A program made the position numbers and the translations under genes. A DNA stretch of 20,000 nucleotides from an uncultured virus (IMG/VR IMGVR_UViG_3300020475_000546) (Duplodnaviria; Heunggongvirae; Uroviricota; Caudoviricetes), in the IMG/VR virus record IMGVR_UViG_3300020475_000546, positions 54,350 through 74,349 of that record; one strand, 5' to 3'. The notes below the pieces were generated by a model. It ran no database searches. It was not told the origin of the DNA and saw only the letters and a list, made by a program, of their open reading frames with translations. The number at the start of each line of letters is the position of its first letter. Position 1 is the first letter of the stretch. This document shows positions 1-19,682 of the stretch, one piece after another.

Positions 1-535
1 GCTTTTCATCATCCTCGTCATCTTCATACTTGCGTGACTTGTACTTGTCTTTCGCAGCTTTGAGTAAATCTTCTGACTTGCCGAAGGCATTAGTAGTGCC
101 TCGCCCATAATTCACATACGGTGTATCGCTTCTAACCGTGCCTCTATGTGCGCCAGCCGAGAAGGATAATCCTCTTGCACCCAAATCTACCCCCAATCTT
201 GACTCAAGAAGTTTGTTTTCTTCTTCAAATCTCGGAGAACGCTCGATTACATCAGACATAACTTCTGGTTTGATTTGTATGTGTTGTAGTCCGGGCATCA
301 ATTCCCTCAAAGCTCTTTCACGCCTCTTATCGGGGTCAGCTTGATCCCTGCTTTCTGTATCCTCAGTCGTGTTGCGAGAGTTATGAGCTAAATCATCATC
401 ATCTTCATTGGGGTTGATTTGCAGATCTAAGACCTGTCTTGGATTGAAACCACCTGTCATCTCTTGGGTTCGTGGTCGCCATATATTCCCCATATCACGG
501 GGATTAGCTGCTATTTTGACGATTTCATCAGTCAC
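1..535 (-). CDS. Hypothetical protein, 3' end runs off the window (>=178 aa; MTDEIVKIAANPRDMG...AFGKSEDLLKAAKDK...)
   Basis: Manually translated; open from GTG at 535 (GTGA overlap with the stop of 532..1032) to the window edge. Absent from the ORF track because there is no stop in the window. Confidence 0.75.
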   Translation of the reverse strand, partial: MTDEIVKIAANPRDMGNIWRPRTQEMTGGFNPRQVLDLQINPNEDDDDLAHNSRNTTEDTESRDQADPDKRRERALRELMPGLQHIQIKPEVMSDVIERSPRFEEENKLLESRLGVDLGARGLSFSAGAHRGTVRSDTPYVNYGRGTTNAFGKSEDLLKAAKDKYKSRKYEDDEDDEK

Positions 536-1032
536 TTATGCAACCCCCTTCTTGCTATGTCATCCTCTCTTCTGATTGCCTCTCTTGCTCTATCTCTTTC
601 AAGTTGCCTAATACCTTTGAATGCCGTTGCGACACGCATGGGTAGGTTGAGATACCAATGAGATAAAGATGGAACTCTCGCATAGGATTTAGCTAGTGGG
701 AGATATGCGTTCTTGAGCTTGTTCATCTGCTTCATAACATCAACAAAGTCCATTTGTTCGGTGCTTTGTTCGTCTAAGTATGAATAAATCGCAAATCTTG
801 TGTTTATGTTATGACTGTATATTTCATGCGATACTTCTTCCGCCATATCGGTCAAACCAAAGGGTATCATTGATTCTCCCCATTCCTTGATTACATAGTC
901 CATAGCGTCAAGCAATTCGAATAGACCATCGTATGTAGTAGGCAAATCGCCATGCAATACTGATTCGTAGTTGCTATACGGCCCTTCCTTGAGCTGTAAT
1001 TCCTCCGGCCTTCTTCCGATATGGTAGCTCAT
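532..1032 (-). CDS. Hypothetical protein (166 aa)
   Basis: ORF track; 4-nt start/stop overlaps with both neighbours; no recognisable motif. Confidence 0.75.
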   Translation of the reverse strand: MSYHIGRRPEELQLKEGPYSNYESVLHGDLPTTYDGLFELLDAMDYVIKEWGESMIPFGLTDMAEEVSHEIYSHNINTRFAIYSYLDEQSTEQMDFVDVMKQMNKLKNAYLPLAKSYARVPSLSHWYLNLPMRVATAFKGIRQLERDRAREAIRREDDIARRGLHK

Positions 1033-1739
1033 TCATCCATCACCCCCGCTTCTGCTAACATCTGCCTAATCGTTCTCCACTCGTCTGGTGCCTTCTCCGA
1101 GAAATACTCTTGCATTATGGTGATTACAGACACACTTTCAACCTTATCCACTTCCTTGAGCTTATCCATCCATTTGGCTAACTCTCCCAATGTTTCACGG
1201 ACTTCACGGTGCATCTTGATGGCTAAATCCAAATCCTTGCTTGATACCATATCTGCATTCTCAACCATCTGTTCCTCTAATCGGTCTAAGTGCATAGATA
1301 GCAAAGTATCCATTCTATTCATGTTAGATTCAACACGATTCAAGCTATCGTGCGTAGTTTGAATTGCTTTCGGTATAACTTCGATATTTGCCTGTCTTTG
1401 GATTAGAGGCTTGGTATGTTTCTCCATGTGATGAGTAATGGTCAATTCGGGAATATCTAATTCTTCCGAAAAATCAATTATTGTAGCTCTATGGTCAAGA
1501 ATGGCCGATTCTATTTCAGACCTTTCTGGATGAGTACAGACTGGGCAATCCACATTTGACTCATTGAAGAAAGCACCTGCATGGTTTCTCATGTGCCTGT
1601 GAGCTAAACCATTAGCCCAACCTTGATCTCTATCTACATCATTAGTGTCAAGCTTCCCAGCTCTTATGTCTAATTCAATAGAATCTCTTTCTGGATGTTG
1701 GCAGAAGGGACAATTCTTGCGTATCCGCCTACCACCCAT
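1029..1739 (-). CDS. Zn-binding protein with two CxxC-x-HPER...HxxxH repeats and a coiled-coil C-terminus; possibly terminase small subunit-like
   Basis: CPFCQHPERDSIE...HRHMRNH and CPVCTHPERSEIE...HHMEKH tandem repeats, then a helical region. The TerS-like label is recalled resemblance only. Confidence 0.7.
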   Translation of the reverse strand: MGGRRIRKNCPFCQHPERDSIELDIRAGKLDTNDVDRDQGWANGLAHRHMRNHAGAFFNESNVDCPVCTHPERSEIESAILDHRATIIDFSEELDIPELTITHHMEKHTKPLIQRQANIEVIPKAIQTTHDSLNRVESNMNRMDTLLSMHLDRLEEQMVENADMVSSKDLDLAIKMHREVRETLGELAKWMDKLKEVDKVESVSVITIMQEYFSEKAPDEWRTIRQMLAEAGVMDE

Positions 1740-1773
1740 GTATTGCTTGATGTTATACCATCGTTATTGGCTA

Positions 1774-2175
1774 TTACGCTTCATGCTTGCGTAGATGTAT
1801 GCCACAATAACCCTTTTGTGATTTGTCCGATATACGCCTTTGACACCTATTTCCAGATGATGTTACTGCTATGCACCTTTCTTCATCAGTTGGGTTTCGA
1901 TAGCACTCAACGCACACCCCCGTTTGATACTTTGATTTCTTTTTCAATGGCTTCCCACACCGAGAACATTCTTTCTTGCGAGGCAATACTTGATCGGCTA
2001 AAGCGTGTAAATCATCAATCCCTAACTTGCCGTCATTATTCCTATCAGCTACAGCCCTTATGTCTGCAAAATTGACCTTTCCATCCCTGTTAAAGTCAAG
2101 TGGTGAATACCCCTTGTTTTGAGAAGGCTGTTGATAGAAGGCCGCTGGTGTAGGTGGGCGGTACTGCCCCGCCAT
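1774..2175 (-). CDS. Protein with two DxNxDG calcium-binding loops (EF-hand/dockerin-like) and C-terminal Zn-finger motifs
   Basis: DFNRDGKVNFAD and DRNNDGKLGIDD fit the 12-residue Ca loop pattern; CSRC...CVEC and C-x9-C-x11-C-x2-H. ATG at 2175 preferred over TTG at 2181. Confidence 0.75.
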   Translation of the reverse strand: MAGQYRPPTPAAFYQQPSQNKGYSPLDFNRDGKVNFADIRAVADRNNDGKLGIDDLHALADQVLPRKKECSRCGKPLKKKSKYQTGVCVECYRNPTDEERCIAVTSSGNRCQRRISDKSQKGYCGIHLRKHEA

Positions 2176-2192
2176 CGGCAAAGATGGGGGGC

Positions 2193-2447
2193 TTACCGAA
2201 AAGCCGCATATTGTCTAACTGCAAGGAAGAATGTAAAGAATACTCCAAATATAGCAACCATAGAGAAAGTCGGATCCATAGACGGGCCTTTCCAAAGCAT
2301 TACAGATGTAATTAGAAGCATGAAAGATATGATAAAAATCATCGTTGCACTTTCAACCAACATTTTGTTCGGTGCAAACATTTCCATTGTCGTATCAGCC
2401 ATTGTCGTTCCATAAGGTGTTCTTTGTTCCCTATCTTCTTCCTTCAT
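2193..2447 (-). CDS. Small membrane protein, two predicted TM helices (84 aa)
   Basis: Hydrophobic stretches MIFIISFMLLITSVMLW and FSMVAIFGVFFTFFLAV. Confidence 0.75.
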   Translation of the reverse strand: MKEEDREQRTPYGTTMADTTMEMFAPNKMLVESATMIFIISFMLLITSVMLWKGPSMDPTFSMVAIFGVFFTFFLAVRQYAAFR

Positions 2448-2608
2448 TATTCTTCTTCCCCCTTTGTTGAGCCGCCAAGACCCGAAAACATACTACTAAC
2501 GAAAACCTTTCTTCGTCTATTCTTTTTCAAACGATACTTACCAGAAAGAAAATGCTTCTTGCGAGCTTTGAACTTACTCCAGTATCTTGCTCTAACGCCT
2601 TCCTTCAT
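2447..2608 (-). CDS. Small highly basic protein (53 aa; MKEGVRARYWSKFKARKKHFLSGKYRLKKNRRRK...)
   Basis: Manually translated; GAGGGG RBS upstream, TAATG overlap with the next gene, fills the gap in the operon; below the ORF-track cutoff. Confidence 0.6.
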   Translation of the reverse strand: MKEGVRARYWSKFKARKKHFLSGKYRLKKNRRRKVFVSSMFSGLGGSTKGEEE

Positions 2609-2618
2609 TTGAATCCCC

Positions 2619-3257
2619 TCATATTAGAGCTGCTGCCCCTGCACCCATAGCACCCATACCGCCTTGGTTCTGCATTTGCTGACCTAACAGGCCACCGACT
2701 AAGCTACCAAAGAATCCCGGTTGAGGGTTCATCATAGGGTTATGTGCTTGTAGTAGCATTTGTGTTTGTTGTTGATTCATCTGAAGCTGTTGTTGAGCTG
2801 ATTGCCTCAAAGTCTGCAAAGTCAAAGCAAGGTTTTCAGGAGATAGTGTTGCTATGTTAGCGGGGAGCGTAGTTGTGTCTAAACTGAGCTTACCATCTTC
2901 ACCTGCTGCAAGTTGAACATTAGAAAAGAAGTCCTTTAGCGATAGTGTAACAATTTCTGCTACTAAATCCATCATCATGCTAAATTGATTAGCTACAATG
3001 AATTGATTTAGAGGGTCGTAATACTGCAACAATCTTGATGTGGCGATAACTGGGTCATTAGCCATCTGTTGCATCATGGGATTTTGCCCCATCTGTTGCA
3101 TCATCATCGGATCCATCATTCCACCCGCAGCACCCATAGCACCCATTCCACCTTGCATTCCATATCCTCCCATACCTGTCATTCCCATGCTATTTGATGC
3201 ACCGAATTGTTGTGTTGGGGTTTCATTATTCCTGTTAAAAAACCAGCCCATTTTCAT
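2619..3257 (-). CDS. Gln/Met/Gly-rich low-complexity protein with amphipathic termini
   Basis: GMGAMGAAGGMMDPMMMQQMGQNPMMQQ, QQQLQMNQQQ and C-terminal PGFFGSLVGGLLG...GAGAAALI; AGGAG RBS upstream. Confidence 0.8.
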   Translation of the reverse strand: MKMGWFFNRNNETPTQQFGASNSMGMTGMGGYGMQGGMGAMGAAGGMMDPMMMQQMGQNPMMQQMANDPVIATSRLLQYYDPLNQFIVANQFSMMMDLVAEIVTLSLKDFFSNVQLAAGEDGKLSLDTTTLPANIATLSPENLALTLQTLRQSAQQQLQMNQQQTQMLLQAHNPMMNPQPGFFGSLVGGLLGQQMQNQGGMGAMGAGAAALI

Positions 3258-3266
3258 TTCTCCTTT

Positions 3267-4250
3267 CTAATTTGTTTGTTGCCCTACTCCCGTTGATTGA
3301 GGACTTTGATTAACCCCTGCCTGTGCAGACGGTATTGTATTTTGGGTCATATTGGCGTTTTGAAGGCCAATCGCTTGCCTTTGGGACATAGCGTCACTCA
3401 TCTGCAAAGCTCTAAGGTCAAATGTAACCGACACTAAATCGGCCACACCTGTTATTGGATTGGGATATTGAGTTAGGACAATGCCCTTCTTGTGTTTGGT
3501 GTCTTGCTGAATCATCTTGAAGAATGGTTCGTATTTTAACAAGGATTCTGTTGTTGAACGGTTTTGGGCAGAAGAACCCCCCATCAAAGCACTCATACCG
3601 GGAACTTTGAGAAACTTAGTACCTTTGCTGACTGGGCGTAAGCCATCGGCAGACATTTCATCCTCTTGCACTAGCTTTCTCAATGTATGATAAATATGCA
3701 GATGAGCCGGACATAGTGTGCTATTCATTTCATCACCATGATCGCCTCTTGTTCGAGCATGAGGGATTATTGAGTTGCCTGTTTCATCGTCAAACCAATA
3801 CAAATCTGCTAAACTGACCTTACCGGGCAAATCATAATCAATAATTTGGGCGTAATCGTTATCCCCTTCAAGAAAACGCCTCACATCAACACCACAGCAA
3901 GCACACTCAAATGTTCCATTATATCTGTAAATACGCCAAAGACCCAACAAATAGCTCGGTGGCCTCAACGCTTTTCGCAATTTCTTGATGTTTTTCTTTC
4001 GTGCCTTTTTGGGATTATCGGGGTTTTGCACCAATTGAACCTCAACCGTAGGTACTACTTCCTCAGCTCCACCGTAGCCACCAGTAGCTCCGGCACTTGC
4101 GATTTCAGCTCTTTGTTGGGCTTTCAACATAGGAAATGCAAGCCCTGTGTTGGCCGCTACCTGTTTTAATTGTTCATCGGTTAAACCTGCTAATTTTGCG
4201 TTGGGATTGCCCGCAATCCAGTTGGGCAAGATGTTGCCTGTCCAGCTCAT
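3267..4250 (-). CDS. Hypothetical protein with probable Zn site (CACC ... CPAH), ~327 aa
   Basis: ORF track 3267..4277 (TTG start); ATG at 4250 (MSWTG) preferred. Basic patch KKARKKNIKKLRK and Q-rich tail. Confidence 0.75.
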   Translation of the reverse strand: MSWTGNILPNWIAGNPNAKLAGLTDEQLKQVAANTGLAFPMLKAQQRAEIASAGATGGYGGAEEVVPTVEVQLVQNPDNPKKARKKNIKKLRKALRPPSYLLGLWRIYRYNGTFECACCGVDVRRFLEGDNDYAQIIDYDLPGKVSLADLYWFDDETGNSIIPHARTRGDHGDEMNSTLCPAHLHIYHTLRKLVQEDEMSADGLRPVSKGTKFLKVPGMSALMGGSSAQNRSTTESLLKYEPFFKMIQQDTKHKKGIVLTQYPNPITGVADLVSVTFDLRALQMSDAMSQRQAIGLQNANMTQNTIPSAQAGVNQSPQSTGVGQQTN

Positions 4251-4293
4251 GTTAGCTATCCCAACCTTGACAACCAATTAAGCATTCCGTGTT

Positions 4294-5022
4294 TTACAGT
4301 AGTTCTACAATAGATATTAACACCTTTTCCACATTTACGCCATGTTGTGCCGATATTGCATCTATATCGGCTCTAACTCCGGCCTTTCTAAGCCGTCTTA
4401 ACTCGTTTCTAAAGGGGGCAACGATGGGATGTTCCCTTTGCAGGTTATTATCCCAAAGGTATTGAGCTTGAGGCGACCACCATAAATCCATTTTATTCAC
4501 TAAGAATACTACGACTTTCGGCATATAGTTGCTACGAGAAGTTTTTTTCGCCTTTCTGGATATGGCCGTGCTAACATCTTTTCGAGTTATGTTGTCTATT
4601 AAATATCTAAATGAAGCCAAAGAATCCTTAGCAAAAGACGGACTTGTTAATACTCTATGATCCACCATGAATATGACTATCTCGCACTTACGGCCAAACA
4701 TATCTTCTATCCAGAGATTCCTAAATTGAGCTTGCCCTGCAATATCCGAATTAGAAATTGGGATCCTATCTTTTTTGTATTTGATTAACTTTCTATGAGG
4801 TTTAGGGGCTTTGGCGTGACCATTGACCATAGGGTGGGATGTTCGCATCTCAATTGGTATCGGGTCTATGTCGCCCGGAACGGTCAGATATTGGTCTAAT
4901 GTAGTCTTACCAGTCATACTTGGGCCGTATATTCCAATACGATATGGCCTAAGAATACGGTAAAACTTCTGCAAGGCGTGAACCGAGCTAATTAGCAGAT
5001 GCCCTGCGATGACCGCACTCAT
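4294..5022 (-). CDS. Ras-superfamily small GTPase with Arf/Arl-like features (242 aa)
   Basis: G1 GPSMTGKTT, candidate G2 Thr (MRTS), G3 DIAGQ followed by AQFRNLW, strand IVIFMVD, G4 NKMD, G5 SAQ, all in canonical order. Confidence 0.9.
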   Translation of the reverse strand: MSAVIAGHLLISSVHALQKFYRILRPYRIGIYGPSMTGKTTLDQYLTVPGDIDPIPIEMRTSHPMVNGHAKAPKPHRKLIKYKKDRIPISNSDIAGQAQFRNLWIEDMFGRKCEIVIFMVDHRVLTSPSFAKDSLASFRYLIDNITRKDVSTAISRKAKKTSRSNYMPKVVVFLVNKMDLWWSPQAQYLWDNNLQREHPIVAPFRNELRRLRKAGVRADIDAISAQHGVNVEKVLISIVELL

Positions 5023-5035
5023 ACGGCCAGCCCAC

Positions 5036-5257
5036 TCATATTTGGTCTTTCAAATACTCCCAAAGCCCGACTGGGGATGTTCCTAATTCGTCTAATATAA
5101 TTAAGATGGCGAAAGTTCCGCCTATGCCTATTGCTAATGCTACAAATGTGCGAACCCAACCCGCCATTCGTTCCATTTTTCTTTCGTAGGAGTTTTCTGC
5201 TAATATCTGAGCCATTTCTGCTGCTTGTCTTTCTTGTCTTGTTGAAAACGGCCACAT
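5036..5257 (-). CDS. Small single-pass membrane protein (73 aa)
   Basis: TM segment FVALAIGIGGTFAILIIL; AGGTGGGG RBS upstream. Confidence 0.75.
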   Translation of the reverse strand: MWPFSTRQERQAAEMAQILAENSYERKMERMAGWVRTFVALAIGIGGTFAILIILDELGTSPVGLWEYLKDQI

Positions 5258-5273
5258 TTAGTCCCCACCTACT

Positions 5274-5741
5274 TCAGTTGTTGGATCGCCCATCATCCTC
5301 ATCTGAAGCAGGTGTGTTGGGAAGTCCAAATACATCTCTTCCTTGAGATTGTTGCTGCATAACAGCCATTTGCCCCTGTAGCTCTTGGTAATATTGTTGT
5401 TTTTGCATACGCCTGTTGGTCATTTGCATTTGATTTCTAAACCATTTGTCATAACTCGCTTCCTTTGAAAACTCAGCTCTCATAGCCATACTATCTCTTA
5501 TTCCGCCTACTTGGAACAGAACCATAGATGTGCATAAAAAGCCAAATGCGATTAGTCCGTATTGTAATCCCATTTCGGCTGGTGTTGCATTCGGTAGATA
5601 CCAATCTTTGTGAGATATGCCTACTGCAACGCCTGTAAGAAGCGATTGCCATAGAAGCATAGCTATCAGATTAACATCAACCCTATTCCCTGTTTGTTCA
5701 GCTGGTGGTTGCCACATTGGTATTTGTGATGATCCATTCAT
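5274..5741 (-). CDS. Membrane protein, two TM helices plus Q-rich C-terminal region (~155 aa)
   Basis: LIAMLLWQSLLTGVAVGI and YGLIAFGFLCTSMVLFQV. ATG at 5741, just after the RHH stop, preferred over 5765. Confidence 0.75.
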   Translation of the reverse strand: MNGSSQIPMWQPPAEQTGNRVDVNLIAMLLWQSLLTGVAVGISHKDWYLPNATPAEMGLQYGLIAFGFLCTSMVLFQVGGIRDSMAMRAEFSKEASYDKWFRNQMQMTNRRMQKQQYYQELQGQMAVMQQQSQGRDVFGLPNTPASDEDDGRSNN

Positions 5742-5745
5742 TTTC

Positions 5746-5889
5746 TTATCCTTCCTTTTGCTCATCTATGAGCCTAAAGTAGTGCTGCAACGCATGATTC
5801 ACATACGATGATTTGGATTCTCGACCCCTTTCTTTCTCCATTCTGCGGTATAATTCTTCCCACATCACTACCGATACATGACGGCTCAT
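5746..5889 (-). CDS. Ribbon-helix-helix (CopG/Arc-like) DNA-binding protein (47 aa)
   Basis: MSRHVSVVMWEELYRRMEKERGRESKSSYVNHALQHYF: alternating beta strand, helix, S-K-S-x-x-V-x-x-A-L second helix. First gene of the GTPase cluster. Confidence 0.7.
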   Translation of the reverse strand: MSRHVSVVMWEELYRRMEKERGRESKSSYVNHALQHYFRLIDEQKEG

Positions 5890-5947
5890 CGTATCGGCCT
5901 GTAATATGAGAGCCTTATGAGCGTTGTTATAGATGACAGGGTTGAAA

Positions 5948-7714
5948 TCATATTTTACGCATGAATTGAGTAATATCCAAACCAGAATCAACGACTCTCG
6001 GTTTTAGGTCATCACCATAGGCGACTCTAAGATTTTGTCGTGAGTTAAGATTTTGAGGACGGTTTTTGGTACTGCCTTGATGAACATTGAAACTTATCGG
6101 TTCAGTTCCATGCCAACAATCATCACAATTGTAATCTTCACAATTACCTCCTAACATAGAAGCGGGGCATGACTTAACTGAAGGATCTAAGGAAGATGCC
6201 GAGCTTGCCTTTATTCGAGGATGCTCTAATAATTCTTCATAACCTGCTGAGAAATCCTCTCCCAAGAGAGGCAAACCATACGCTTCATTTATTTCATTAT
6301 CAACAGCTTGTCCTATCCATGGTAATGACAACATGACATTCATATTCTTAGGTATAGCATCCCATCCTCTTCTATCTAAGAATGATTTGACCCCTGCCGA
6401 TTCTCTTGTAGGCAACCAATGTTCTAATTGAGGTGTTGCTGAAGCTATATCGTTCAACATAGCGAAATGTTGCGCCCCATAATCACGATCTGTTTCTTCT
6501 TCACCTTCTTGTAAATCCCCACTATCCATGTGCCTAAACTTGTTAGTGCCGTAATAAAACGATTCAGCTGGCGCACGGTGAGCAAAGGCAGAAGCGTAGC
6601 TCAAAGGGTCATCATCCGTTAGTCCGTGAAAGTTCCTCCATAGTTGAGTCTGTTTTGGGTTCAATGGGTATCTGCCTTGCTTTGCATAACACATTTTACC
6701 GTCTGAGCCACCGCAGGTTGAACCAGCTACCATACCTAATCGGCCACCTACATGACACAGATGCACAGGCAAACCGAAGGAAGCTCCGGGCATTTTATCC
6801 GGTGCGCCAAAACCTCCACTCGGATTCATACTAACTATTTTATTGGCTTCGCTCACGGGTCTTTTACCCGAAGTTCGCCCCATTGTGTCTGAAAACTTAG
6901 GGATTTTGACTTGTTCATCAACATCCCATCTAACCTTTCTATCGTCTTTGTATCTATTCATTATGTCCTTGTTGTTTTCTAACCAATCAAATATCTGGCG
7001 ACCATCACCCGGATATTTGCCCCCAAAGAACCGATCCCACCAAAACATATCATCGGGGTCGCCAAGAGCTTTCAGTAGCAAAGAGCGAATGGTCATCGGT
7101 TCGCCAGTATGAATATCTTGGAATTGTTGGGTGAAAGGCAGGTGTTTTGAATCGCCTCTTGGCTCGAAAGGTGTGCCGTCTTTTTTCCAACCGCCCGCAT
7201 GAATGTCGCCTCTTCTGCCCGCATCAACGGTTTGCTCTTGCGATCTGTATGTTATTTCACTGGATAACGCTTCAGCAAAGTCCTCACTAAGATTCGCAGC
7301 TTCGTTTGCAGGGTTAAACAGCGACACAGCTAATTCCATGCGTTCATCTTCAGAAAGATTGGGGTTATGCTCAAACCTTGAAAACTGCGTTCTAAACTCA
7401 TCTAACAAATCACGGTATCTGTTTATCTCGGAATGAGGTAGCAAACCCAAAGGTCGAGGATAAGGCAGGGGGTTAGAGAAGTATCTTTCATCATACGCCT
7501 CTCTCTCTTCTTCTGACATTTCTTCCCAATCACGGGGATTGCTACCTTTGCCGTGAGCTTCTTCCCAATACTCGTTTGGATGCTTTTCTGCATAGCCTTC
7601 TGGGACTAATCCAGTAGGATCATATTCAGCTTGAAAATCAAACCTATCGGGCTTATCATCGGATTCCTTAGTGATAGACCAACCCACTTCAAAAGGGCTA
7701 ACGCTACCACTCAT
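5948..7714 (-). CDS. Tagged multidomain protein with a C-terminal GP88-like (radical-SAM-related, Fe-S) domain
   Basis: N-terminal PFEVGWSITK tag. C-terminal KMPGASFGLPVHLC...STC...CYAKQGRY, FRHMDSGDLQ, HWLPTRE, PKNMNVMLS and CPA...CDDCW match my recollection of the phage gene product 88 family. Confidence 0.8.
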   Translation of the reverse strand: MSGSVSPFEVGWSITKESDDKPDRFDFQAEYDPTGLVPEGYAEKHPNEYWEEAHGKGSNPRDWEEMSEEEREAYDERYFSNPLPYPRPLGLLPHSEINRYRDLLDEFRTQFSRFEHNPNLSEDERMELAVSLFNPANEAANLSEDFAEALSSEITYRSQEQTVDAGRRGDIHAGGWKKDGTPFEPRGDSKHLPFTQQFQDIHTGEPMTIRSLLLKALGDPDDMFWWDRFFGGKYPGDGRQIFDWLENNKDIMNRYKDDRKVRWDVDEQVKIPKFSDTMGRTSGKRPVSEANKIVSMNPSGGFGAPDKMPGASFGLPVHLCHVGGRLGMVAGSTCGGSDGKMCYAKQGRYPLNPKQTQLWRNFHGLTDDDPLSYASAFAHRAPAESFYYGTNKFRHMDSGDLQEGEEETDRDYGAQHFAMLNDIASATPQLEHWLPTRESAGVKSFLDRRGWDAIPKNMNVMLSLPWIGQAVDNEINEAYGLPLLGEDFSAGYEELLEHPRIKASSASSLDPSVKSCPASMLGGNCEDYNCDDCWHGTEPISFNVHQGSTKNRPQNLNSRQNLRVAYGDDLKPRVVDSGLDITQFMRKI

Positions 7715-7787
7715 GCTAACAATGTGTATTACCATTCATGAAAAGATTACCGCACTATTCATAATGAATTGTAGTATTAGTAATATT

Positions 7788-11868: not shown

Positions 11869-12212
11869 GAATCCTCACCATAACGAACATTATCAAACGC
11901 CCCCATATCTTCCAAGACAGTCCAAGGGTTGATGTTATCCCACATCTCACGATGGCGTTCCCCCATCATTTCGGTTATAGGGTTAGGCCAATCAGTAGTG
12001 GTTCTTCCACCCTCTCCATCATGGTGCATCATCACCATCCCGTCTGAAGGGTCATCGTCATAGTGATATGACCAATTTGAATTGTGAAGCCAAATAAGAT
12101 AATCAATAGCTTCAGAAGGGTCGTTTATCGGTTTTCTTATCATCATAGGGGGGTGATTTAACTGATGAGGACTATTCTTTGCTATCTTCCAAGCTCGGTC
12201 AAAGGTGGTCAT
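11865..12212 (-). CDS. Tagged hypothetical protein (115 aa)
   Basis: Starts MTTFDRAWKIAK; ATGA overlaps with both neighbours. Confidence 0.8.
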   Translation of the reverse strand: MTTFDRAWKIAKNSPHQLNHPPMMIRKPINDPSEAIDYLIWLHNSNWSYHYDDDPSDGMVMMHHDGEGGRTTTDWPNPITEMMGERHREMWDNINPWTVLEDMGAFDNVRYGEDS

Positions 12213-13204
12213 TCAATCCTTCTCCTTCCAACATTTGTGACGGCTTTCGGGTCTGAACCCAAGTACGCAATCTCAAGAGGGTATCTGCCCCTCAAGGGAT
12301 GATCCTCTCCATCAGTAAATAGATAGAAGGGCAATCGGTCATACTGGTGAGGGAATGCAGTTGGGGGGCTGTACTCAAATGGTTCATCACCCTCACTCAT
12401 GTAATCAGGGTCACGAACAAACATTCTACCGCCAAAATCATCTACTTTGGGTTCGGTGGGTCTTGTGAATCTGAAATCCCCTTTTGTTCTATCAACCATA
12501 GATTTGTCCCTGTAGTATTCAGACCATTCATTACCTCCCATACCCGGCAATTTATTGAAATCATGAATCGTCAAATCACCACCAGAAGTTAGCTTTCCAC
12601 CTAAGCTATTCCACAAATCATATCCTTCGATTGAAAATTGGTTATCCCCTACAAGCCCTGTGTCTTGTAATATTGAGCCGAGCAGGTGCTGACCGATACC
12701 TCGCCCCCCGAAACCGGGATTTAGGAAAATATTCGCAACATCGCCTTTTGGAGATGTATGAGCTGCGGCCAATGAAGCTCTACTCCCCTCGTTCTCTAAC
12801 TCTTCAAGCCACCTTCTAACCGGACTTTGCCCTTCATCTTCATCCGTCATCGCACTTGTAAATACGCTGTAGGGTATCGGTTTTCCTTGATGGCGGGCAT
12901 TCTGGCGTTGAGCTACATTCAAAGGATAATTAAGAATGCTCGGTTTCTGCGAAAACTCTCTCATTACTTTGGGTAGGGTAATCTTGTTGTAGGGTGCGGT
13001 TGTTTTCCAATCATCATCTAAGTTATACCTATCAAACTCGTCAAACAATTCCAAACCAACATGAGGATCAACGGTGAAGTGGTAATCTAAATCACCTTGT
13101 TTTGCATAGGGACTCCATGACGGTCTTGAAATGACTTCTGCATTAAAATCCAAATCCGGCAATTCCGCTTTCACAATAGCCCAAGCTCGGTCAAATGCGG
13201 TCAT
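12209..13204 (-). CDS. Tagged protein with a GNAT-like acetyltransferase domain (331 aa)
   Basis: Starts MTAFDRAWAIVK; VANIFLNPGFGGRGIGQHLL (motif A) and FSIEGYDLWNSL (motif B-like). Confidence 0.75.
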   Translation of the reverse strand: MTAFDRAWAIVKAELPDLDFNAEVISRPSWSPYAKQGDLDYHFTVDPHVGLELFDEFDRYNLDDDWKTTAPYNKITLPKVMREFSQKPSILNYPLNVAQRQNARHQGKPIPYSVFTSAMTDEDEGQSPVRRWLEELENEGSRASLAAAHTSPKGDVANIFLNPGFGGRGIGQHLLGSILQDTGLVGDNQFSIEGYDLWNSLGGKLTSGGDLTIHDFNKLPGMGGNEWSEYYRDKSMVDRTKGDFRFTRPTEPKVDDFGGRMFVRDPDYMSEGDEPFEYSPPTAFPHQYDRLPFYLFTDGEDHPLRGRYPLEIAYLGSDPKAVTNVGRRRIE

Positions 13205-13671
13205 TCGAGATACCCCCATTTATCACGAAGCTTGAGGCTATCCCTCTCTTTTGCCACTAATCTTCTCCATTCATCCCAATCTATCTTGTTGTCTTTGTCT
13301 TTTGATGCGTAATATATCCAATCAAGCTGATTTCTTAGGTTTCTTTTGACTCTATGCCCGCTTTCAGCACCTAATGATCGCTTGATTCTTTCTAACTGAA
13401 AAGCATCTATCGCATCGTCTAAGGTTTCATACTGCCCCATGTATAGTGGCTCATTAGTAAGGTAGTTATCACTAAGTCGTCTTTGAGATATTGTATCGGT
13501 GAATCCACCGCAATTGGGGCAAAACCCAATCTCCGACATGGCATCTTGGCCTCTCGGAACGCCTGTAACGCCCATTTGCTTCGCTTCATTCAACGAGTAC
13601 ATGGGTTCGAAACAGTTCGTGCAACGAAAACCGTATTTGGAATGCAGGTTATTTCTAGGTTCATCTATCAT
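13201..13671 (-). CDS. Zn-ribbon hypothetical protein, no tag (156 aa)
   Basis: CTNC...CPNC; TGATG overlap with the upstream gene supports the ATG at 13671. Confidence 0.7.
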   Translation of the reverse strand: MIDEPRNNLHSKYGFRCTNCFEPMYSLNEAKQMGVTGVPRGQDAMSEIGFCPNCGGFTDTISQRRLSDNYLTNEPLYMGQYETLDDAIDAFQLERIKRSLGAESGHRVKRNLRNQLDWIYYASKDKDNKIDWDEWRRLVAKERDSLKLRDKWGYLE

Positions 13672-15743
13672 CAAACCCCTCCTGAACAATCACACGGCCT
13701 ATTCCAGTTTGGCGGATACCAAGGCAATTCTGGATATGCACCGTAAGTATCCTTCACCCTCTCGCAAAGCCAACATCTCTTTCTCGGAAATCCAGCTGAT
13801 GGGTTGAGGTTCTTAGCTACAGACCAACCATCTTCAAAGGAGTCACCTGAGCGATACATATCAACGGCATCCGAGCTTCCCATAGTCGTTTCAGCTACGC
13901 ATTCGTCATACTCATCAATTATTCTTCGAGCCAACCAATGTTCTGGGGTTTCATTACCCGGCTTTCTATCTGTAACATTGAGTCTATGATACACACCGGG
14001 CATATCGCCTGAAAAATCCCTTAGAGTTTCAATAAACTCTTCACAGCTCATACTCTCGTATCCGTCAATTATGTTTTGATTGACACCCGACAAGCTCTCA
14101 TTCAACACGAAAGACGAGTCATCCATCCCGAATATCTCTCTCAACCCCTCAATCCACTTATTCTTCGCATTGACGCAACATGGATCATCACCAGAATCAA
14201 GCGGTGGCTCAAGATTTATGATTGGTGCTGTTTCTTCCTCTTGTTCATCAAGTGTCCTTGCTTGCATAGCTCGGTCTGCATCAAACTTGGTAATGCCCCA
14301 AGCATCCTCAAAGGAATCACCAGAAGCTGTAAAATCGCCCGAAAACCCCTCAGATATACAAGATTCCCATTGTTCAAGCACCTTTTTCGCTTTTGGTGCT
14401 AAATCCTCATTCCCCATCAATTCTGCTTCGGGGTCATCATAAGCAAGCCATTCCAACCATGAATGAAGCTCATCGCAATCTAATTCACCCCCGCCTAAAC
14501 CATCTGTTCCGCCTTCAACACCCTTAGACCATATCCAAGGATTGCTTCTGGTGTGATCTCCGGTCAATTCTTGATACAATTGTAGAGCTTCAAGACAGCA
14601 CTTATCCGGTTCTCCACCATTAGGGTTCAAATCCACATTGACTTCTTCATCCTCAGCTGGCATCTGTTCTTGGTTAGCCATACGATCTTGAGCATCAAGA
14701 AAAGGTTCTGCTTCGGGCGGAAATGGGTTAAACTTCATTTTGGCTATGTTCCAGCTATCCTCAAACACATCACCAGAAGCTGTGAAGTCGCCACCGAAAT
14801 CAACGCCACCGAAACCGCCACGCTGACAGGCTTCGTATTCTTGAATGGCCTCAAGTGCTTGATTTAGAATACCTTGAACAAGGTGGGCAAAATCTTCATC
14901 CGTTTGAGGGTCATTGAGTAAAGACTCCAAATCGGGCTTGATTTGCTCATTGAATATAGCAATTGCATCATCGCATGGCTCATCCCACCAATCCCAATCA
15001 ACATACATAGCATCAGGCTTAGATGAAAGTAATTGAAAACCATTAGAATTATCATAAGGCGTTCCATTGAATATATTTTCAAACTCAATTTGGAGATTTT
15101 GGCAACATTCACCTTGATTACCCCCTATGTTGAGGTTCAAATCAACATTTTCATCAACATCGGGCATCTGAGCATCTACGGTTCTCGCCATCTCAGCTCT
15201 TTGTTGGTCAAACTTGGTGAATGATTTATCAAAAGATTGGAATCTGTAATCGTAATCGGGTTCGGTATAACCACATTCGTTACAACCAAGTGTGAATGAT
15301 TTTACATCATCGTTCTCTCGGATAACCATAGCATCCCCTTTACATTCGGGGCATTTGACGCTACCAATAATTACCCCCCCATCTTCATAGTCGGCATCGT
15401 ATTTATTGCCCTCATCATCTGTATCCGGCCTGTTGCTGAGCTTTTCATCACCTTCCTCTTCATATCTCATTATAGATGTGAAGGGAATGCCCGCATCTCT
15501 CATTCGAGCCATGACCTCATCGGGTGTAGCACCTTTTAACGACCAATCAAGCTCCCAATCACGGCCACCCATCGGATAACCCCCACCTGCATCAAAAGTA
15601 ATGCCCTCAGCCATCAGCTCATCACGAAGCCGGAATAACTTGTCAGCTACTTCTGGATCGGAAGTATCCGTATTGACTGAATGATAAAACGGAGCTTTAG
15701 CGACCCTCCAAGCCGAATCAAACGGGCTATCCGCTACGCTCAT
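13671..15743 (-). CDS. Large acidic polyprotein-like protein with three ~150-160-aa four-Cys repeats delimited by tag copies (690 aa)
   Basis: Tags PFDSAWRVAK, (SFDKSFTK), VFEDSWNIAK, SFEDAWGITK, SFEDGWSVAK; each repeat has CC...C[DE][DE]...[YW][ED]xC. Confidence 0.85.
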   Translation of the reverse strand: MSVADSPFDSAWRVAKAPFYHSVNTDTSDPEVADKLFRLRDELMAEGITFDAGGGYPMGGRDWELDWSLKGATPDEVMARMRDAGIPFTSIMRYEEEGDEKLSNRPDTDDEGNKYDADYEDGGVIIGSVKCPECKGDAMVIRENDDVKSFTLGCNECGYTEPDYDYRFQSFDKSFTKFDQQRAEMARTVDAQMPDVDENVDLNLNIGGNQGECCQNLQIEFENIFNGTPYDNSNGFQLLSSKPDAMYVDWDWWDEPCDDAIAIFNEQIKPDLESLLNDPQTDEDFAHLVQGILNQALEAIQEYEACQRGGFGGVDFGGDFTASGDVFEDSWNIAKMKFNPFPPEAEPFLDAQDRMANQEQMPAEDEEVNVDLNPNGGEPDKCCLEALQLYQELTGDHTRSNPWIWSKGVEGGTDGLGGGELDCDELHSWLEWLAYDDPEAELMGNEDLAPKAKKVLEQWESCISEGFSGDFTASGDSFEDAWGITKFDADRAMQARTLDEQEEETAPIINLEPPLDSGDDPCCVNAKNKWIEGLREIFGMDDSSFVLNESLSGVNQNIIDGYESMSCEEFIETLRDFSGDMPGVYHRLNVTDRKPGNETPEHWLARRIIDEYDECVAETTMGSSDAVDMYRSGDSFEDGWSVAKNLNPSAGFPRKRCWLCERVKDTYGAYPELPWYPPNWNRPCDCSGGV

Positions 15744-17891: not shown

Positions 17892-18551
17892 TTATTCGTA
17901 ATCCTCGTATTCCATTATACCTTCATCGCCCCAGATTTCATCATCTGGAACGCCTGTTCCGCCACAAGCAGCACATTCCATCATCATATACTCTACATCT
18001 CTCATCGCCATCTCTTTCGCTTCCTCAAATGTTTGCGACTGGGATGTATCTCCTGAACCAATCGTCACCAGTTGCTGACCTGTACCCTCGCATGATGGGC
18101 ATTTGCCTGATTCATACAGCTTCAGATGCTCAAGTGTTCGAGGCATCTTCACCAAAAAGTCGCTCTTTTTCAAAGGTCTGCCTTTCTCATCATAGCCTTG
18201 CATCATAGAATAATCCAAAGAACCATCCTCATTGACATTCAAACCTGCATTCCAACACCAATCACCATTACCACCACACAATACACAAGGTTCTCCCCCA
18301 TGTTCCGCTGCAAGTTTTCGACAATTCATTACCTCATTAGGAAAATGCAGGTATCTTGATTGCATCGCTTCAAGAGGCGTAGGTGGTCTGCTATCTTCCT
18401 TTACAACAGACCAAGCCTTCTCAAATGATTTCTTGTCTTTTTCTGCGTAGCAAGGACACTTGGGTTCTGACTTGGAACATTTAGTGATGCCTTTCTTCAT
18501 GCAGACGCAGGGGTTTGACTTGGTTGCCCCGCAACAGCACCCATCACTCAT
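17892..18551 (-). CDS. Cys-rich protein: metallothionein-like N-terminus, internal tag, DnaJ-type CxxCxGxG Zn finger
   Basis: MSDGCCCGATKSNPCVCM...CPCY; KKSFEKAWSVVK; CPSCEGTG and CAACGGTG. Confidence 0.75.
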   Translation of the reverse strand: MSDGCCCGATKSNPCVCMKKGITKCSKSEPKCPCYAEKDKKSFEKAWSVVKEDSRPPTPLEAMQSRYLHFPNEVMNCRKLAAEHGGEPCVLCGGNGDWCWNAGLNVNEDGSLDYSMMQGYDEKGRPLKKSDFLVKMPRTLEHLKLYESGKCPSCEGTGQQLVTIGSGDTSQSQTFEEAKEMAMRDVEYMMMECAACGGTGVPDDEIWGDEGIMEYEDYE

Positions 18552-19063
18552 CAACAATTCCACCTGTCAAGAGCTGCACCTTTCGGTGTTTTCTTACCTT
18601 CTTTACTGGTAGGCCCTTTGACACCACCCATACGAGCGCAGAATGATTTCTTTCGAGCTTTTCTCTTCCCGGTAGGATTCTTCTCGGTAACGGGTGGTTT
18701 GAGGTTAGCACCCTCTTCCTTCTTTGCCTTTGCACGACCCTTCGCATTCAGCCCACCTTTGCGACTGTGCTTGTTAGGGTTGTACCCGTGAAATGGTTTG
18801 TCGTCTTTCTCTTTCTTCTCCAAGATGTTGTGAATAGTCACGCAAGCATTACAATCGCACTCATAGCTCTTGTTAGTCAGCTTATCCCAGTTTTTCTTAT
18901 CAGGGTAGTCCTTATCTCCGGGTTTAGCTGCCTTCTCGCCTCTTTTCCTCTTAGCATGAACATTATCCCAAAGACCACGCTTTTTGCCCTTATCCATATA
19001 GGCCATGCTCTTTTCTTCGCCTTTAGCCAAGATCCAAGCCTTTGAGAACGCATCTGCCGTCAT
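18551..19063 (-). CDS. Tagged highly basic protein with a conserved phage domain (DUF6321-like, from recollection)
   Basis: Starts MTADAFSKAWILAK; GLWDNVHAKRKRGE; GGLNAKGRAK...NLKPPV...RKKSFCARMGG...ALDRWNC. Confidence 0.75.
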   Translation of the reverse strand: MTADAFSKAWILAKGEEKSMAYMDKGKKRGLWDNVHAKRKRGEKAAKPGDKDYPDKKNWDKLTNKSYECDCNACVTIHNILEKKEKDDKPFHGYNPNKHSRKGGLNAKGRAKAKKEEGANLKPPVTEKNPTGKRKARKKSFCARMGGVKGPTSKEGKKTPKGAALDRWNC

Positions 19064-19100
19064 GATTGAACAACAACAGTCAATGGATTTTAACCGTTTA

Positions 19101-19682
19101 TCATTGACGAGCCTTTTCTTCACTTGTTCGATGGCTCATCCAATGTGGACTTTGCCCATCGCTCATCTCATGGCGATCAAACTCACCAGAACCGGGATGA
19201 ACCTTGTCTGCCCATCCCGTATCAAAGCTCTCAGGATATTCGTTGCGACCCATCAATTTACCCGGTTCTTGTTCTTCAAGGGGTGTCGGTTTCATTTCAT
19301 TATACCTTTGCCCCCTGTTCCAGCTTGAAAAATCTCTACGATTCTGAGATTCACGGTTAGCCTCTATATTCATATCCATATCACCATCTTCTAATATCTG
19401 CTCTACTGATTTTGGTTTTGTGAGTATCCGCCTTAGCTGTTCATTAGGCTCAGACCTGTTCCTCTCAACAGACTCATCGTGGCGAGCCTTCTCCCTTCGA
19501 GCCATCATACCCAAGATTGCGGGGTGAATAGTGCCTTCAGACTCAAAGCCATGACCCATGTATGGCCCAGAACCTTCAGCTAAATCTGCGAACATAAACT
19601 TCTCAGCTCCTCTTCGGCTTACTGCTTGCTGTTCCGGCAACGCTTTGACGATACGCCAAGCTCTCTCGAAGCTATCCGACAT
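19101..19682 (-). CDS. Tagged hypothetical protein (193 aa)
   Basis: Starts MSDSFERAWRIVK with AGGTG RBS. The longer track start (19826) overlaps another small ORF. Confidence 0.75.
   Translation of the reverse strand: MSDSFERAWRIVKALPEQQAVSRRGAEKFMFADLAEGSGPYMGHGFESEGTIHPAILGMMARREKARHDESVERNRSEPNEQLRRILTKPKSVEQILEDGDMDMNIEANRESQNRRDFSSWNRGQRYNEMKPTPLEEQEPGKLMGRNEYPESFDTGWADKVHPGSGEFDRHEMSDGQSPHWMSHRTSEEKARQ

Follow-up and report, generated by a model that had tools for sequence, protein, structure and literature searches.

A very divergent Arf-like GTPase within a conserved gene block of Poseidoniales-associated tailed viruses

The stretch of DNA analyzed here, referred to as the window, comprises 20,000 nucleotides and makes up the terminal 20 kb of one viral contig of 74,349 bp (IMG/VR record IMGVR_UViG_3300020475_000546) that is about 70% complete. 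Positions 4294 to 5022 of the window coincide exactly with one open reading frame (ORF) on the minus strand, which encodes a divergent Arf-like small GTPase of 242 amino acids; the plus-strand translation of the same positions is interrupted by many stops. The product contains the complete set of G1 to G5 nucleotide-binding motifs (G.....GKTT, RT61, D..G, NKMD, and [SA][AS]Q), with G1 (GPSMTGKTT) at residues 33 to 41, switch I (TVPGDIDPIP..RT) at residues 47 to 61, G3 and switch II (DIAGQAQFRNLW) at residues 93 to 104, G4 (NKMD) at residues 176 to 179, and G5 (SAQ) at residues 224 to 226, and an N-terminal stretch, SSVHALQKFYRILR, occupies residues 12 to 25. A first-pass annotation, made from the sequence alone, had described a complete small GTPase at this position, and every motif that it quoted is present in the minus-strand product. 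Comparison with the three closest relatives gave ratios of nonsynonymous to synonymous substitution (dN/dS) of 0.028 to 0.049 at dS values of 0.66 to 1.09, and the ORF is a real gene under strong purifying selection.

A word-indexed search recovered 110 homologues of the GTPase at an E value of ≤0.001 among 397 candidates, none of which carries a functional name. In an alignment of 99 family members, each at least 200 amino acids long, residues G38, K39, T41, T47, P49, G50, I55, P56, R60, and T61 are invariant, as are D93, G96, W104, N176, K177, D179, and W181, and N102 is kept in 93 members. At position 97, the switch II glutamine (codon 4732 to 4734), 75 members have Q and 22 have D, while H and A occur once each. 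The catalytic Gln noted earlier is thus present here as Gln97 but is kept in only 75 of the 99 members, and because 22 carry Asp, canonical Gln-assisted hydrolysis is not universal across the family. Asp97 is always paired with Met at position 99 (22/99), and the members with this pair may represent a sub-lineage with altered GTP hydrolysis. Similarly, position 95 is occupied by Ala in 51 members, this protein included, and by Gly in 48, so that the Ras-type Ala of the DxAGQ motif, although correctly read in this protein, is a polymorphism within the family and not a signature.

The family is narrow and unnamed, its profile retrieving only 83 proteins at an E value of ≤0.001 among 1.84 billion representatives. 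In Pfam, the GTPase matched Arf (PF00025) with 16.5 bits (E value, 0.0062; residues 82 to 124 only; cut-off, 22.3 bits), followed by sub-threshold matches to Roc and then to Ras. When 31 diverse members were scanned, Arf was matched at an E value of ≤0.01 by 13 of them (best, 1.4e-4) and Gtr1_RagA, Ras, Roc, and GTP_EFTU by 5 each, and in NCBIfam the generic small_GTP model alone was matched, below its cut-off, by 16 of the 31. A search of PHROGs with the GTPase gave no match, nor did tblastn against a phage collection, which may be without records near this genome. Among all PDB sequences, the top match of the family profile was 8oun_A (E value, 4.6e-6), followed by 8oum, Arl8A/B, Arl6, and Arf1, with Rab33 weaker; 8OUN and 8OUM are described as GerdArfR1 of an Asgard archaeon, 8OUN being the GDP form (bioRxiv 10.1101/2024.02.28.582541). 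The most distant full-length matches of the profile, the metagenomic proteins P0169, P0180, P0181, and P0184, score best against Arf in Pfam, exceeding its cut-off with 27 to 61 bits, and hhalign aligned the viral family with these four Arf-type proteins at 99.8% (E value, 2e-28) over 190 columns. No confirmed locus was obtained for P0180 in metagenome contigs or for P0184 in viral contigs.

The AF2 model of the GTPase has a mean pLDDT of 71.9 and is confident only from residue 96 on. A first pass with Foldseek placed Era, Rabs, and mini-Gs on top, at TM-scores of 0.3 to 0.44, a generic ranking attributable to the inclusion of the model's low-confidence half. The structure comparison relied on here is a second look with VIA-align using the trimmed model, in which 30 of the 50 entries listed are Arf, Arl, or Sar proteins (Z, 8.5 to 10.6) and none has a Ras, Rab, or Rho title, while Asgard and eukaryotic Rag, G-alpha, SR-beta, and translation factors lie within about 1 to 2 Z units of the Arf entries. 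Structure prediction, which had been proposed as a check, yielded generic small GTPases in the first pass and a predominance of Arf-type entries, tied with Rag and G-alpha, after trimming. The nearest named relatives are Arf-family GTPases, including the Asgard ArfR proteins, and by profile and structure ranking the protein is best placed, as a very divergent member, among the Arf-like GTPases of the superfamily, but it misses the Pfam Arf cut-off. In the ESM Atlas, the next clusters after the viral ones are bacterial, with Pfam Arf on 17 to 67% of their members. Since the nearest non-viral look-alikes are bacterial, the earlier wording "eukaryote-like" is too strong.

With the Arf family (the ArfR proteins GerdArfR1 [8OUN/8OUM] and HodArfR1 [8OUK], as well as Arl8, Arl6, Arl1, Arl3, Arf1, Arf6, and Sar1), the viral protein has in common the G-domain fold and a switch II close to the D.GGQ...RNLW type with an invariant Trp. 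Like ArfR, Arl8, and Sar1, it has a (here predicted) helix before beta-1 without the lipidation Gly2; residue 2 is Ser, so that there is no Gly for myristoylation. In contrast to Arf proteins of about 180 amino acids, the viral GTPase has 242, is about 17 residues longer than GerdArfR1 between switch I and beta-3 in the alignment, adds a basic insert before beta-5, and is extended between G4 and G5, where Trp, His, and Arg residues are conserved. Its family also varies Gly/Ala and Gln/Asp in switch II, for which the Arf signature, D.GGQ...R..W, calls for Gly as the third G3 residue (PMC11914678). Finally, it is virus encoded and tied to a block of membrane-protein genes, with no recognizable guanine nucleotide exchange factor or GTPase-activating protein.

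An N-terminal amphipathic extension, as claimed in the first-pass annotation, is borne out as a predicted hydrophobic-amphipathic helix, modeled by AF2 at residues 2 to 24 with a pLDDT of only 40 to 57. Its hydrophobic moment is 0.424 and its mean hydrophobicity 0.646; over 31 family members, the best 18-residue window has a median moment of 0.364 and a median hydrophobicity of 0.653. The ranges used for Arf helices are 0.236 to 0.636 for the moment and 0.201 to 0.629 for hydrophobicity (PMC11914678), and both this protein and the family median thus fall within the Arf range of moments. Residues G7 and H8 of the helix are nearly invariant in the family, and hydropathy analysis predicted no full transmembrane segment in the GTPase. 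The region that in Arf proteins undergoes the interswitch beta-hairpin toggle, a two-residue register shift, is modeled here at a pLDDT of <50. From the helix and the gene context described below, we infer that the GTPase acts at a membrane.

The neighbor proteins of the window were compared by tblastn with 60 related loci, 58 from IMG/VR and 2 from genome contigs, and transmembrane helices were predicted by hydropathy. One collinear gene order emerged, in which ten genes are kept in 54 to 60 of the 60 loci (Table 1), with spacings of 9 to 16 bp or overlaps between genes. The GTPase gene lies at the center of this block and is not "stand-alone," as had been stated: the gene of the protein with one transmembrane helix is directly upstream, across a 13-bp gap, and that of the Cys/His protein directly downstream.

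Table 1. Genes of the conserved block, with window positions and recovery among the 60 related loci
Feature	Positions	Strand	Loci (of 60)	Remarks
Basic, low-complexity protein of 391 aa (N-terminal 178 aa only)	2..535	-	54	Continues past the low end of the window (contig 53709-54884)
166-aa conserved protein	532..1032	-	55	Downstream end of block; no Pfam/PHROG match
236-aa protein, N-terminal Cys clusters (zinc-ribbon-like)	1029..1739	-	59	Helical C-terminal half
135-aa protein, EF-hand-like loops, C-terminal zinc ribbon	1774..2181	-	17	Variable member
84-aa membrane protein	2193..2447	-	57	Two predicted transmembrane helices (28-55, 57-82)
212-aa Gln/Gly/Met-rich low-complexity protein	2619..3257	-	59	No Pfam/PHROG match
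336-aa Cys/His protein	3267..4277	-	60	Conserved YRYN..ECACCG..CPAHLHIYH; includes most divergent loci
242-aa divergent Arf-like small GTPase	4294..5022	-	60	
73-aa protein	5036..5257	-	58	One predicted transmembrane helix (34-59)
163-aa membrane protein	5274..5765	-	56	Two predicted transmembrane helices (31-51, 66-89); Gln-rich C-terminal tail
Small conserved ORF	5746..5991	-	54	Head of block; likely start at internal ATG 5889, giving 47 aa

Searches of Pfam, PHROGs, and PADLOC with the partners of the GTPase in the block gave no family beyond weak matches. For the small ORF that heads the block, Pfam gave nothing even at an E value of ≤1, and the 163-aa membrane protein has no Pfam family; the 135-aa protein matched EF-hand_1 below the cut-off (E value, 1.7e-4), and the 236-aa zinc-ribbon protein had sub-threshold Pfam matches only (YkoP; E value, 1.1e-5). 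The Cys/His protein is predicted to be soluble and is without a known family, and its AF2 model (mean pLDDT, 68.6) gave no Foldseek match at an E value of ≤0.001; a winged-helix-like stretch at its residues 243 to 311 resembled TFE-alpha at a best VIA-align Z of 4.3, which is too weak to name it. A complex prediction for the GTPase with residues 20 to 300 of the Cys/His protein scored 0.02 against a mark of 0.32 and counts neither way. Two further ORFs were rejected as genes, namely, a 78-aa ORF at 5019 to 5255 that overlaps the 5036-5257 frame (8 versus 58 of the 60 loci) and a 53-aa ORF at 2447 to 2608 (conserved in 1 locus of 60).

In the two most divergent loci, L058 and L059, the GTPase is only 36 to 38% identical and the membrane proteins are no longer seen by tblastn, but both loci contain ORFs of matching size, position, and number of transmembrane helices, including equivalents of the 73-aa one-helix and the 84-aa two-helix proteins. 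These loci bear on a rather unlikely alternative, namely, that the protein is a soluble regulatory GTPase with no role at the membrane, one that times assembly or packaging or redirects a host process, its helix being a protein-protein interface and the membrane proteins being separate neighbors. Such a regulator would fit the prediction of no transmembrane segment in the GTPase, the position of the block upstream of the terminase and portal genes, and the solubility of the Cys/His protein, which is its tightest co-conserved neighbor (60/60 loci). However, the three membrane proteins keep their places beside the GTPase even at 36 to 38% GTPase identity, and the helix is conserved at G7 and H8 with a moment in the Arf range, which speaks against it.

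Small membrane proteins together with an NTPase occur in exclusion and defense systems, and the block could in principle be a superinfection-exclusion or anti-defense module of the host membrane in which the GTPase is the sensor or switch. The zinc-ribbon protein had two weak PADLOC matches, including one to LmuB (E value, 5e-5), which would suit such a module, but the other 9 of the 10 proteins scanned, the GTPase among them, had no PADLOC match. Furthermore, the block belongs to the collinear core of the lineage rather than to a variable accessory island and lies on the strand of the structural genes, and we consider this explanation very improbable. Both here and in the complete 108-kb relative G317, the block precedes the terminase, portal, and capsid genes and shares their strand; in G317, helicase, nuclease, and chaperonin genes, which are probable replication or early genes, are on the opposite strand.

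The first-pass annotation had placed the GTPase in a virus-like element, and the contig indeed encodes a terminase large subunit, a portal protein, an S78 prohead protease, and an HK97-type capsid protein, with 61 of its 69 called ORFs on the minus strand. Nine records of the phage collection matched the capsid protein, eight of them Haloarcula/halovirus tailed viruses at 33 to 34% and one a Methanofastidiosa virus at 26%. This pattern agrees with that of the magroviruses, whose capsid protein is reported to resemble only those of haloarchaeal siphoviruses, at about 33% (PMC5434244). Related contigs that bear the GTPase are typically about 90 to 108 kb long, and a 61%-identical GTPase together with the same block was found on a contig of 106,262 bp whose assembly bears the title uncultured Candidatus Poseidoniales archaeon. 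Running counter to this link, an 8-kb contig with the block was binned in a metagenome-assembled genome titled Parvibaculum sp., which we read as mis-binning. Relatives of this virus also have in common with magroviruses the association with Marine Group II/Poseidoniales, which are archaea abundant in the ocean, and a chaperonin; the latter is encoded by 12 of 26 magroviruses (PMC5434244) and, in G317, is a Cpn60_TCP1 protein (E value, 2.7e-136; L076:16384-18018) without a match in the phage collection, which may be without near records.

For magroviruses, a near-complete archaeal-type replication module comprising DNA polymerase, MCM, clamp, RFC, and primase is described (PMC5434244); the present contig, about 70% complete, does not include that part of the genome. 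Five related viral records, at least 90% complete in four cases, gave no match to Pfam DNA_pol_B or MCM, and membership in the originally described magrovirus groups is therefore not established here. Most plus-strand genes of G317 are without a Pfam family, and the replication proteins of the relatives may be too divergent for Pfam models. G317 further encodes a PAPS-reductase-domain protein (E value, 7.8e-15; L077:9528-10505) and a 1238-aa plus-strand protein with no Pfam, PDB-sequence, or phage-collection match. On these comparisons, we call the virus a Poseidoniales-associated, magrovirus-like tailed virus.

The GC content is even (0.41 to 0.46), and contigs from an independent DNA run, X3, span positions 1 to 3741 and 3712 to 5993, with 30 of 30 window bins covered by this run. 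Together, the even GC content and the X3 contigs give no sign of chimerism or of a eukaryotic origin, either of which would have overturned the prokaryotic-virus setting assumed in the first-pass annotation. Among 151 Poseidoniales genomes searched with the profile of the viral GTPase, no cellular homologue was found; the single genome that matched did so through the viral contig itself, which argues that the gene is virus specific and not a recent capture from the host. A related question is whether the gene is a "eukaryotic signature protein" gained by horizontal transfer from a eukaryote or an Asgard archaeon. The best sequence match of solved structure is the Asgard GerdArfR1, and Arf-type GTPases are reported from a mobile-element-like region of an Asgard genome, that of Atabeyarchaeia (PMC11529989). 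The similarity is remote (profile E value, 4.6e-6; Pfam Arf, 16.5 bits), though, the host is not an Asgard archaeon, and the nearest non-viral ESM Atlas clusters, with Pfam Arf on 17 to 67% of members, are bacterial; such an import is, in our judgment, improbable.

The first-pass annotation had also drawn a parallel to ArvA (OapA). ArvA is reported to be required for vesicle formation and to be encoded in an archaeal vesiculating GTPase operon (PMC10927574). As a comparison set, we used seven GTPases encoded beside OapB (ArvB) genes in genomes of the host's phylum, with which hhalign aligned the viral family at 95% (E value, 4e-8) over 40 columns only, versus 190 columns with the Arf-like set, and the parallel must therefore be regarded as weak. 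The viral family has in common with the ArvA-ArvB-ArvC (OapABC) GTPases a 'RIGIYGP..GKTTL' P-loop context and an 'IP.E.R' switch I, but the G3 motif of ArvA is DTPG, without Gln or Trp, in contrast to the viral D.[AG]G[QD]...NLW. ArvABC, like the viral block, combines a small archaeal-world GTPase linked to membrane deformation with a zinc-ribbon protein in one operon, yet its partners are unrelated to the viral block proteins.

OapB (PF09846) and OapC (PF09845) had no match in the contig at its completeness of about 70%, and no protein of the block matched either at a Pfam E value of ≤0.1. OapB was recovered from none of the 61 Poseidoniales genomes searched but from 95 of 201 genomes of the same phylum; a recent capture from the host is therefore unlikely, and the host order may be without the ArvABC system. 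The viral gene block is, on these comparisons, not an ArvABC system. That the viral protein might nonetheless be an ArvA-type vesiculating GTPase, making vesicles from the host membrane as ArvA does in Haloferax, would accord with the common P-loop and switch I motifs and with the basic or hydrophobic N-terminal helix that precedes beta-1 in both, and with the need of vesicle formation for ArvA (PMC10927574); against the short alignment, the different G3 motif, the missing OapB and OapC, and the distribution of OapB, we regard it as a poor prospect. For MglA, which the first-pass annotation had named as a competing placement, the partner was looked for, and Roadblock/LC7 (MglB partner; PF03259) had no match in the contig. 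The MglA-type G3 motif lacks the Asp that is kept as D93 in 99 of 99 family members.

The reading that we prefer, at roughly even chances, is that of a functional, virus-specific, diverged Arf-like GTPase in a fixed block of Poseidoniales viruses, which would act as a membrane-docking switch, likely in late membrane remodeling or egress. According to this proposal, the GTP form would expose the N-terminal helix and dock on the host cytoplasmic membrane, where the docked GTPase would organize or time the three small membrane proteins of the block together with their soluble partners, the purpose being most likely a late remodeling or breach of the membrane for egress. The egress players of head-tailed archaeal viruses have been described as 'completely uncharacterized' and their holins as elusive (PMC10791045), which makes egress the most attractive target. 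A more specific version, in which the Arf-type switch inserts its helix and, with the three membrane proteins and the orphan partners, drives a GTP-timed remodeling or rupture that releases the virions, is possible but tentative. If true, prokaryotic viruses would have a new kind of egress mechanism, and this in a host order in which OapB, the partner in cellular ArvABC vesiculation, was not found.

Several observations weigh against the preferred reading. The membrane binding of the GTPase is our inference; the helix and residues 38 to 95, which include switch I and the interswitch, are modeled at a pLDDT of <60, and the switch I and interswitch region exceeds its GerdArfR1 counterpart by about 17 residues. 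The helix is also more hydrophobic (family median, 0.653; this protein, 0.646) than the limit of the Arf range, 0.629. As to the Arf assignment, the GTPase scores below the curated Pfam Arf cut-off (16.5 versus 22.3 bits), Foldseek's own first ranking is generic (Era, Rabs, and mini-Gs), VIA-align separates the Arf-family entries from Rag and G-alpha by less than 1 Z unit, in effect a tie, and Asp replaces Gln97 in 22 of the 99 family members. As to egress, Pfam and PHROGs revealed neither a cell wall- or lipid-degrading enzyme nor a known holin family in the block, and the block is assigned as "late" because of its strand and position only. Finally, the contigs from RNA libraries described next place the virus in those libraries but do not give strand, timing, or true transcription.

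Three metatranscriptome runs, X18 and X19 from one sample and X20 from another study, contain short contigs with 99+% identity to the window, which cover 21, 22, and 11 of the 30 window bins, respectively. The covered positions include 5241 to 5703, 3638 to 4003, 2356 to 2764, and 2565 to 3428, the last corresponding to an 867-nt contig of X20 in the region of the Gln/Gly-rich gene. Positions 4003 to 4669, the 3' half of the GTPase gene, are essentially uncovered in all three runs, a contig gap that proves nothing.

We know of no phage lysis cassette that contains a small GTPase. Holin-endolysin cassettes of phages resemble the viral block in their small proteins with one or two transmembrane helices, their charged or polar tails, and their late-gene direction, but the viral block is without a match to an endolysin-type enzyme in Pfam or PHROGs. 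The nearest precedent in print for an Arf-like GTPase on a prokaryotic mobile element is the Atabeyarchaeia element, whose proteins are reported to cluster with Asgard and eukaryotic Arfs and to be integrated in an Asgard chromosome (PMC11529989). In contrast to these, the viral family is far more divergent and is fixed in lytic-type tailed viruses of a non-Asgard archaeon. The main texts of the magrovirus papers examined do not mention GTPase, GTP-binding, or Arf, although supplementary gene tables might list the gene as P-loop or GTP-binding; a full-text literature search found no paper joining magroviruses with a GTPase and no description of the cassette, and nothing related was found on Poseidoniales viruses and GTPases, as judged by titles and the openings of abstracts. 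With an Arf-type switch firmly part of the core genome of these viruses and tied to membrane proteins, a concrete, expressible set of candidate genes for the exit of head-tailed archaeal viruses is at hand. Arf-like switches are moreover in use beyond eukaryotes and Asgard archaea, in viruses that infect a different archaeal phylum, which bears on how far such membrane control extends across prokaryotes and mobile elements.

Several features elsewhere on the contig are recorded here. Directly upstream of the block, a 595-aa protein (5948 to 7735) matched Pfam GP88 above the cut-off (E value, 5.4e-11), and G317 has two GP88-domain genes at the matching place. Only 2 of the 18 window proteins scanned matched PHROGs, by far the strongest being a 190-aa basic protein (18551 to 19123) with matches to seven families of unknown function (best, phrog_11180; E value, 8.6e-18). 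Three giant ORFs of the tail region (2607, 2174, and 2855 aa; contig positions 607 to 14948 and 24077 to 32644), with Laminin_G_3 as the only, weak domain (E value, 1.2e-7), presumably encode tail fiber or adhesin proteins.

The minus strand carries all 17 copies of a peptide motif, F[DE]x[AG]W..[IVLA][VAT]K, 16 of them in the window between 8516 and 19670 and one at contig position 34917. The motif is mostly located at the extreme N terminus of otherwise unrelated acidic, Cys-rich ORFs and is present three times inside a 690-aa ORF (13671 to 15743). The contigs of X3 (depth, 17.7) skip 992 bp at 12204 to 13197, nearly all of the motif-bearing ORF at 12209 to 13219, and 514 bp at 14669 to 15184, inside the 690-aa ORF, which indicates that gene content varies between strains in the motif-bearing array, while the GTPase block is colinear.

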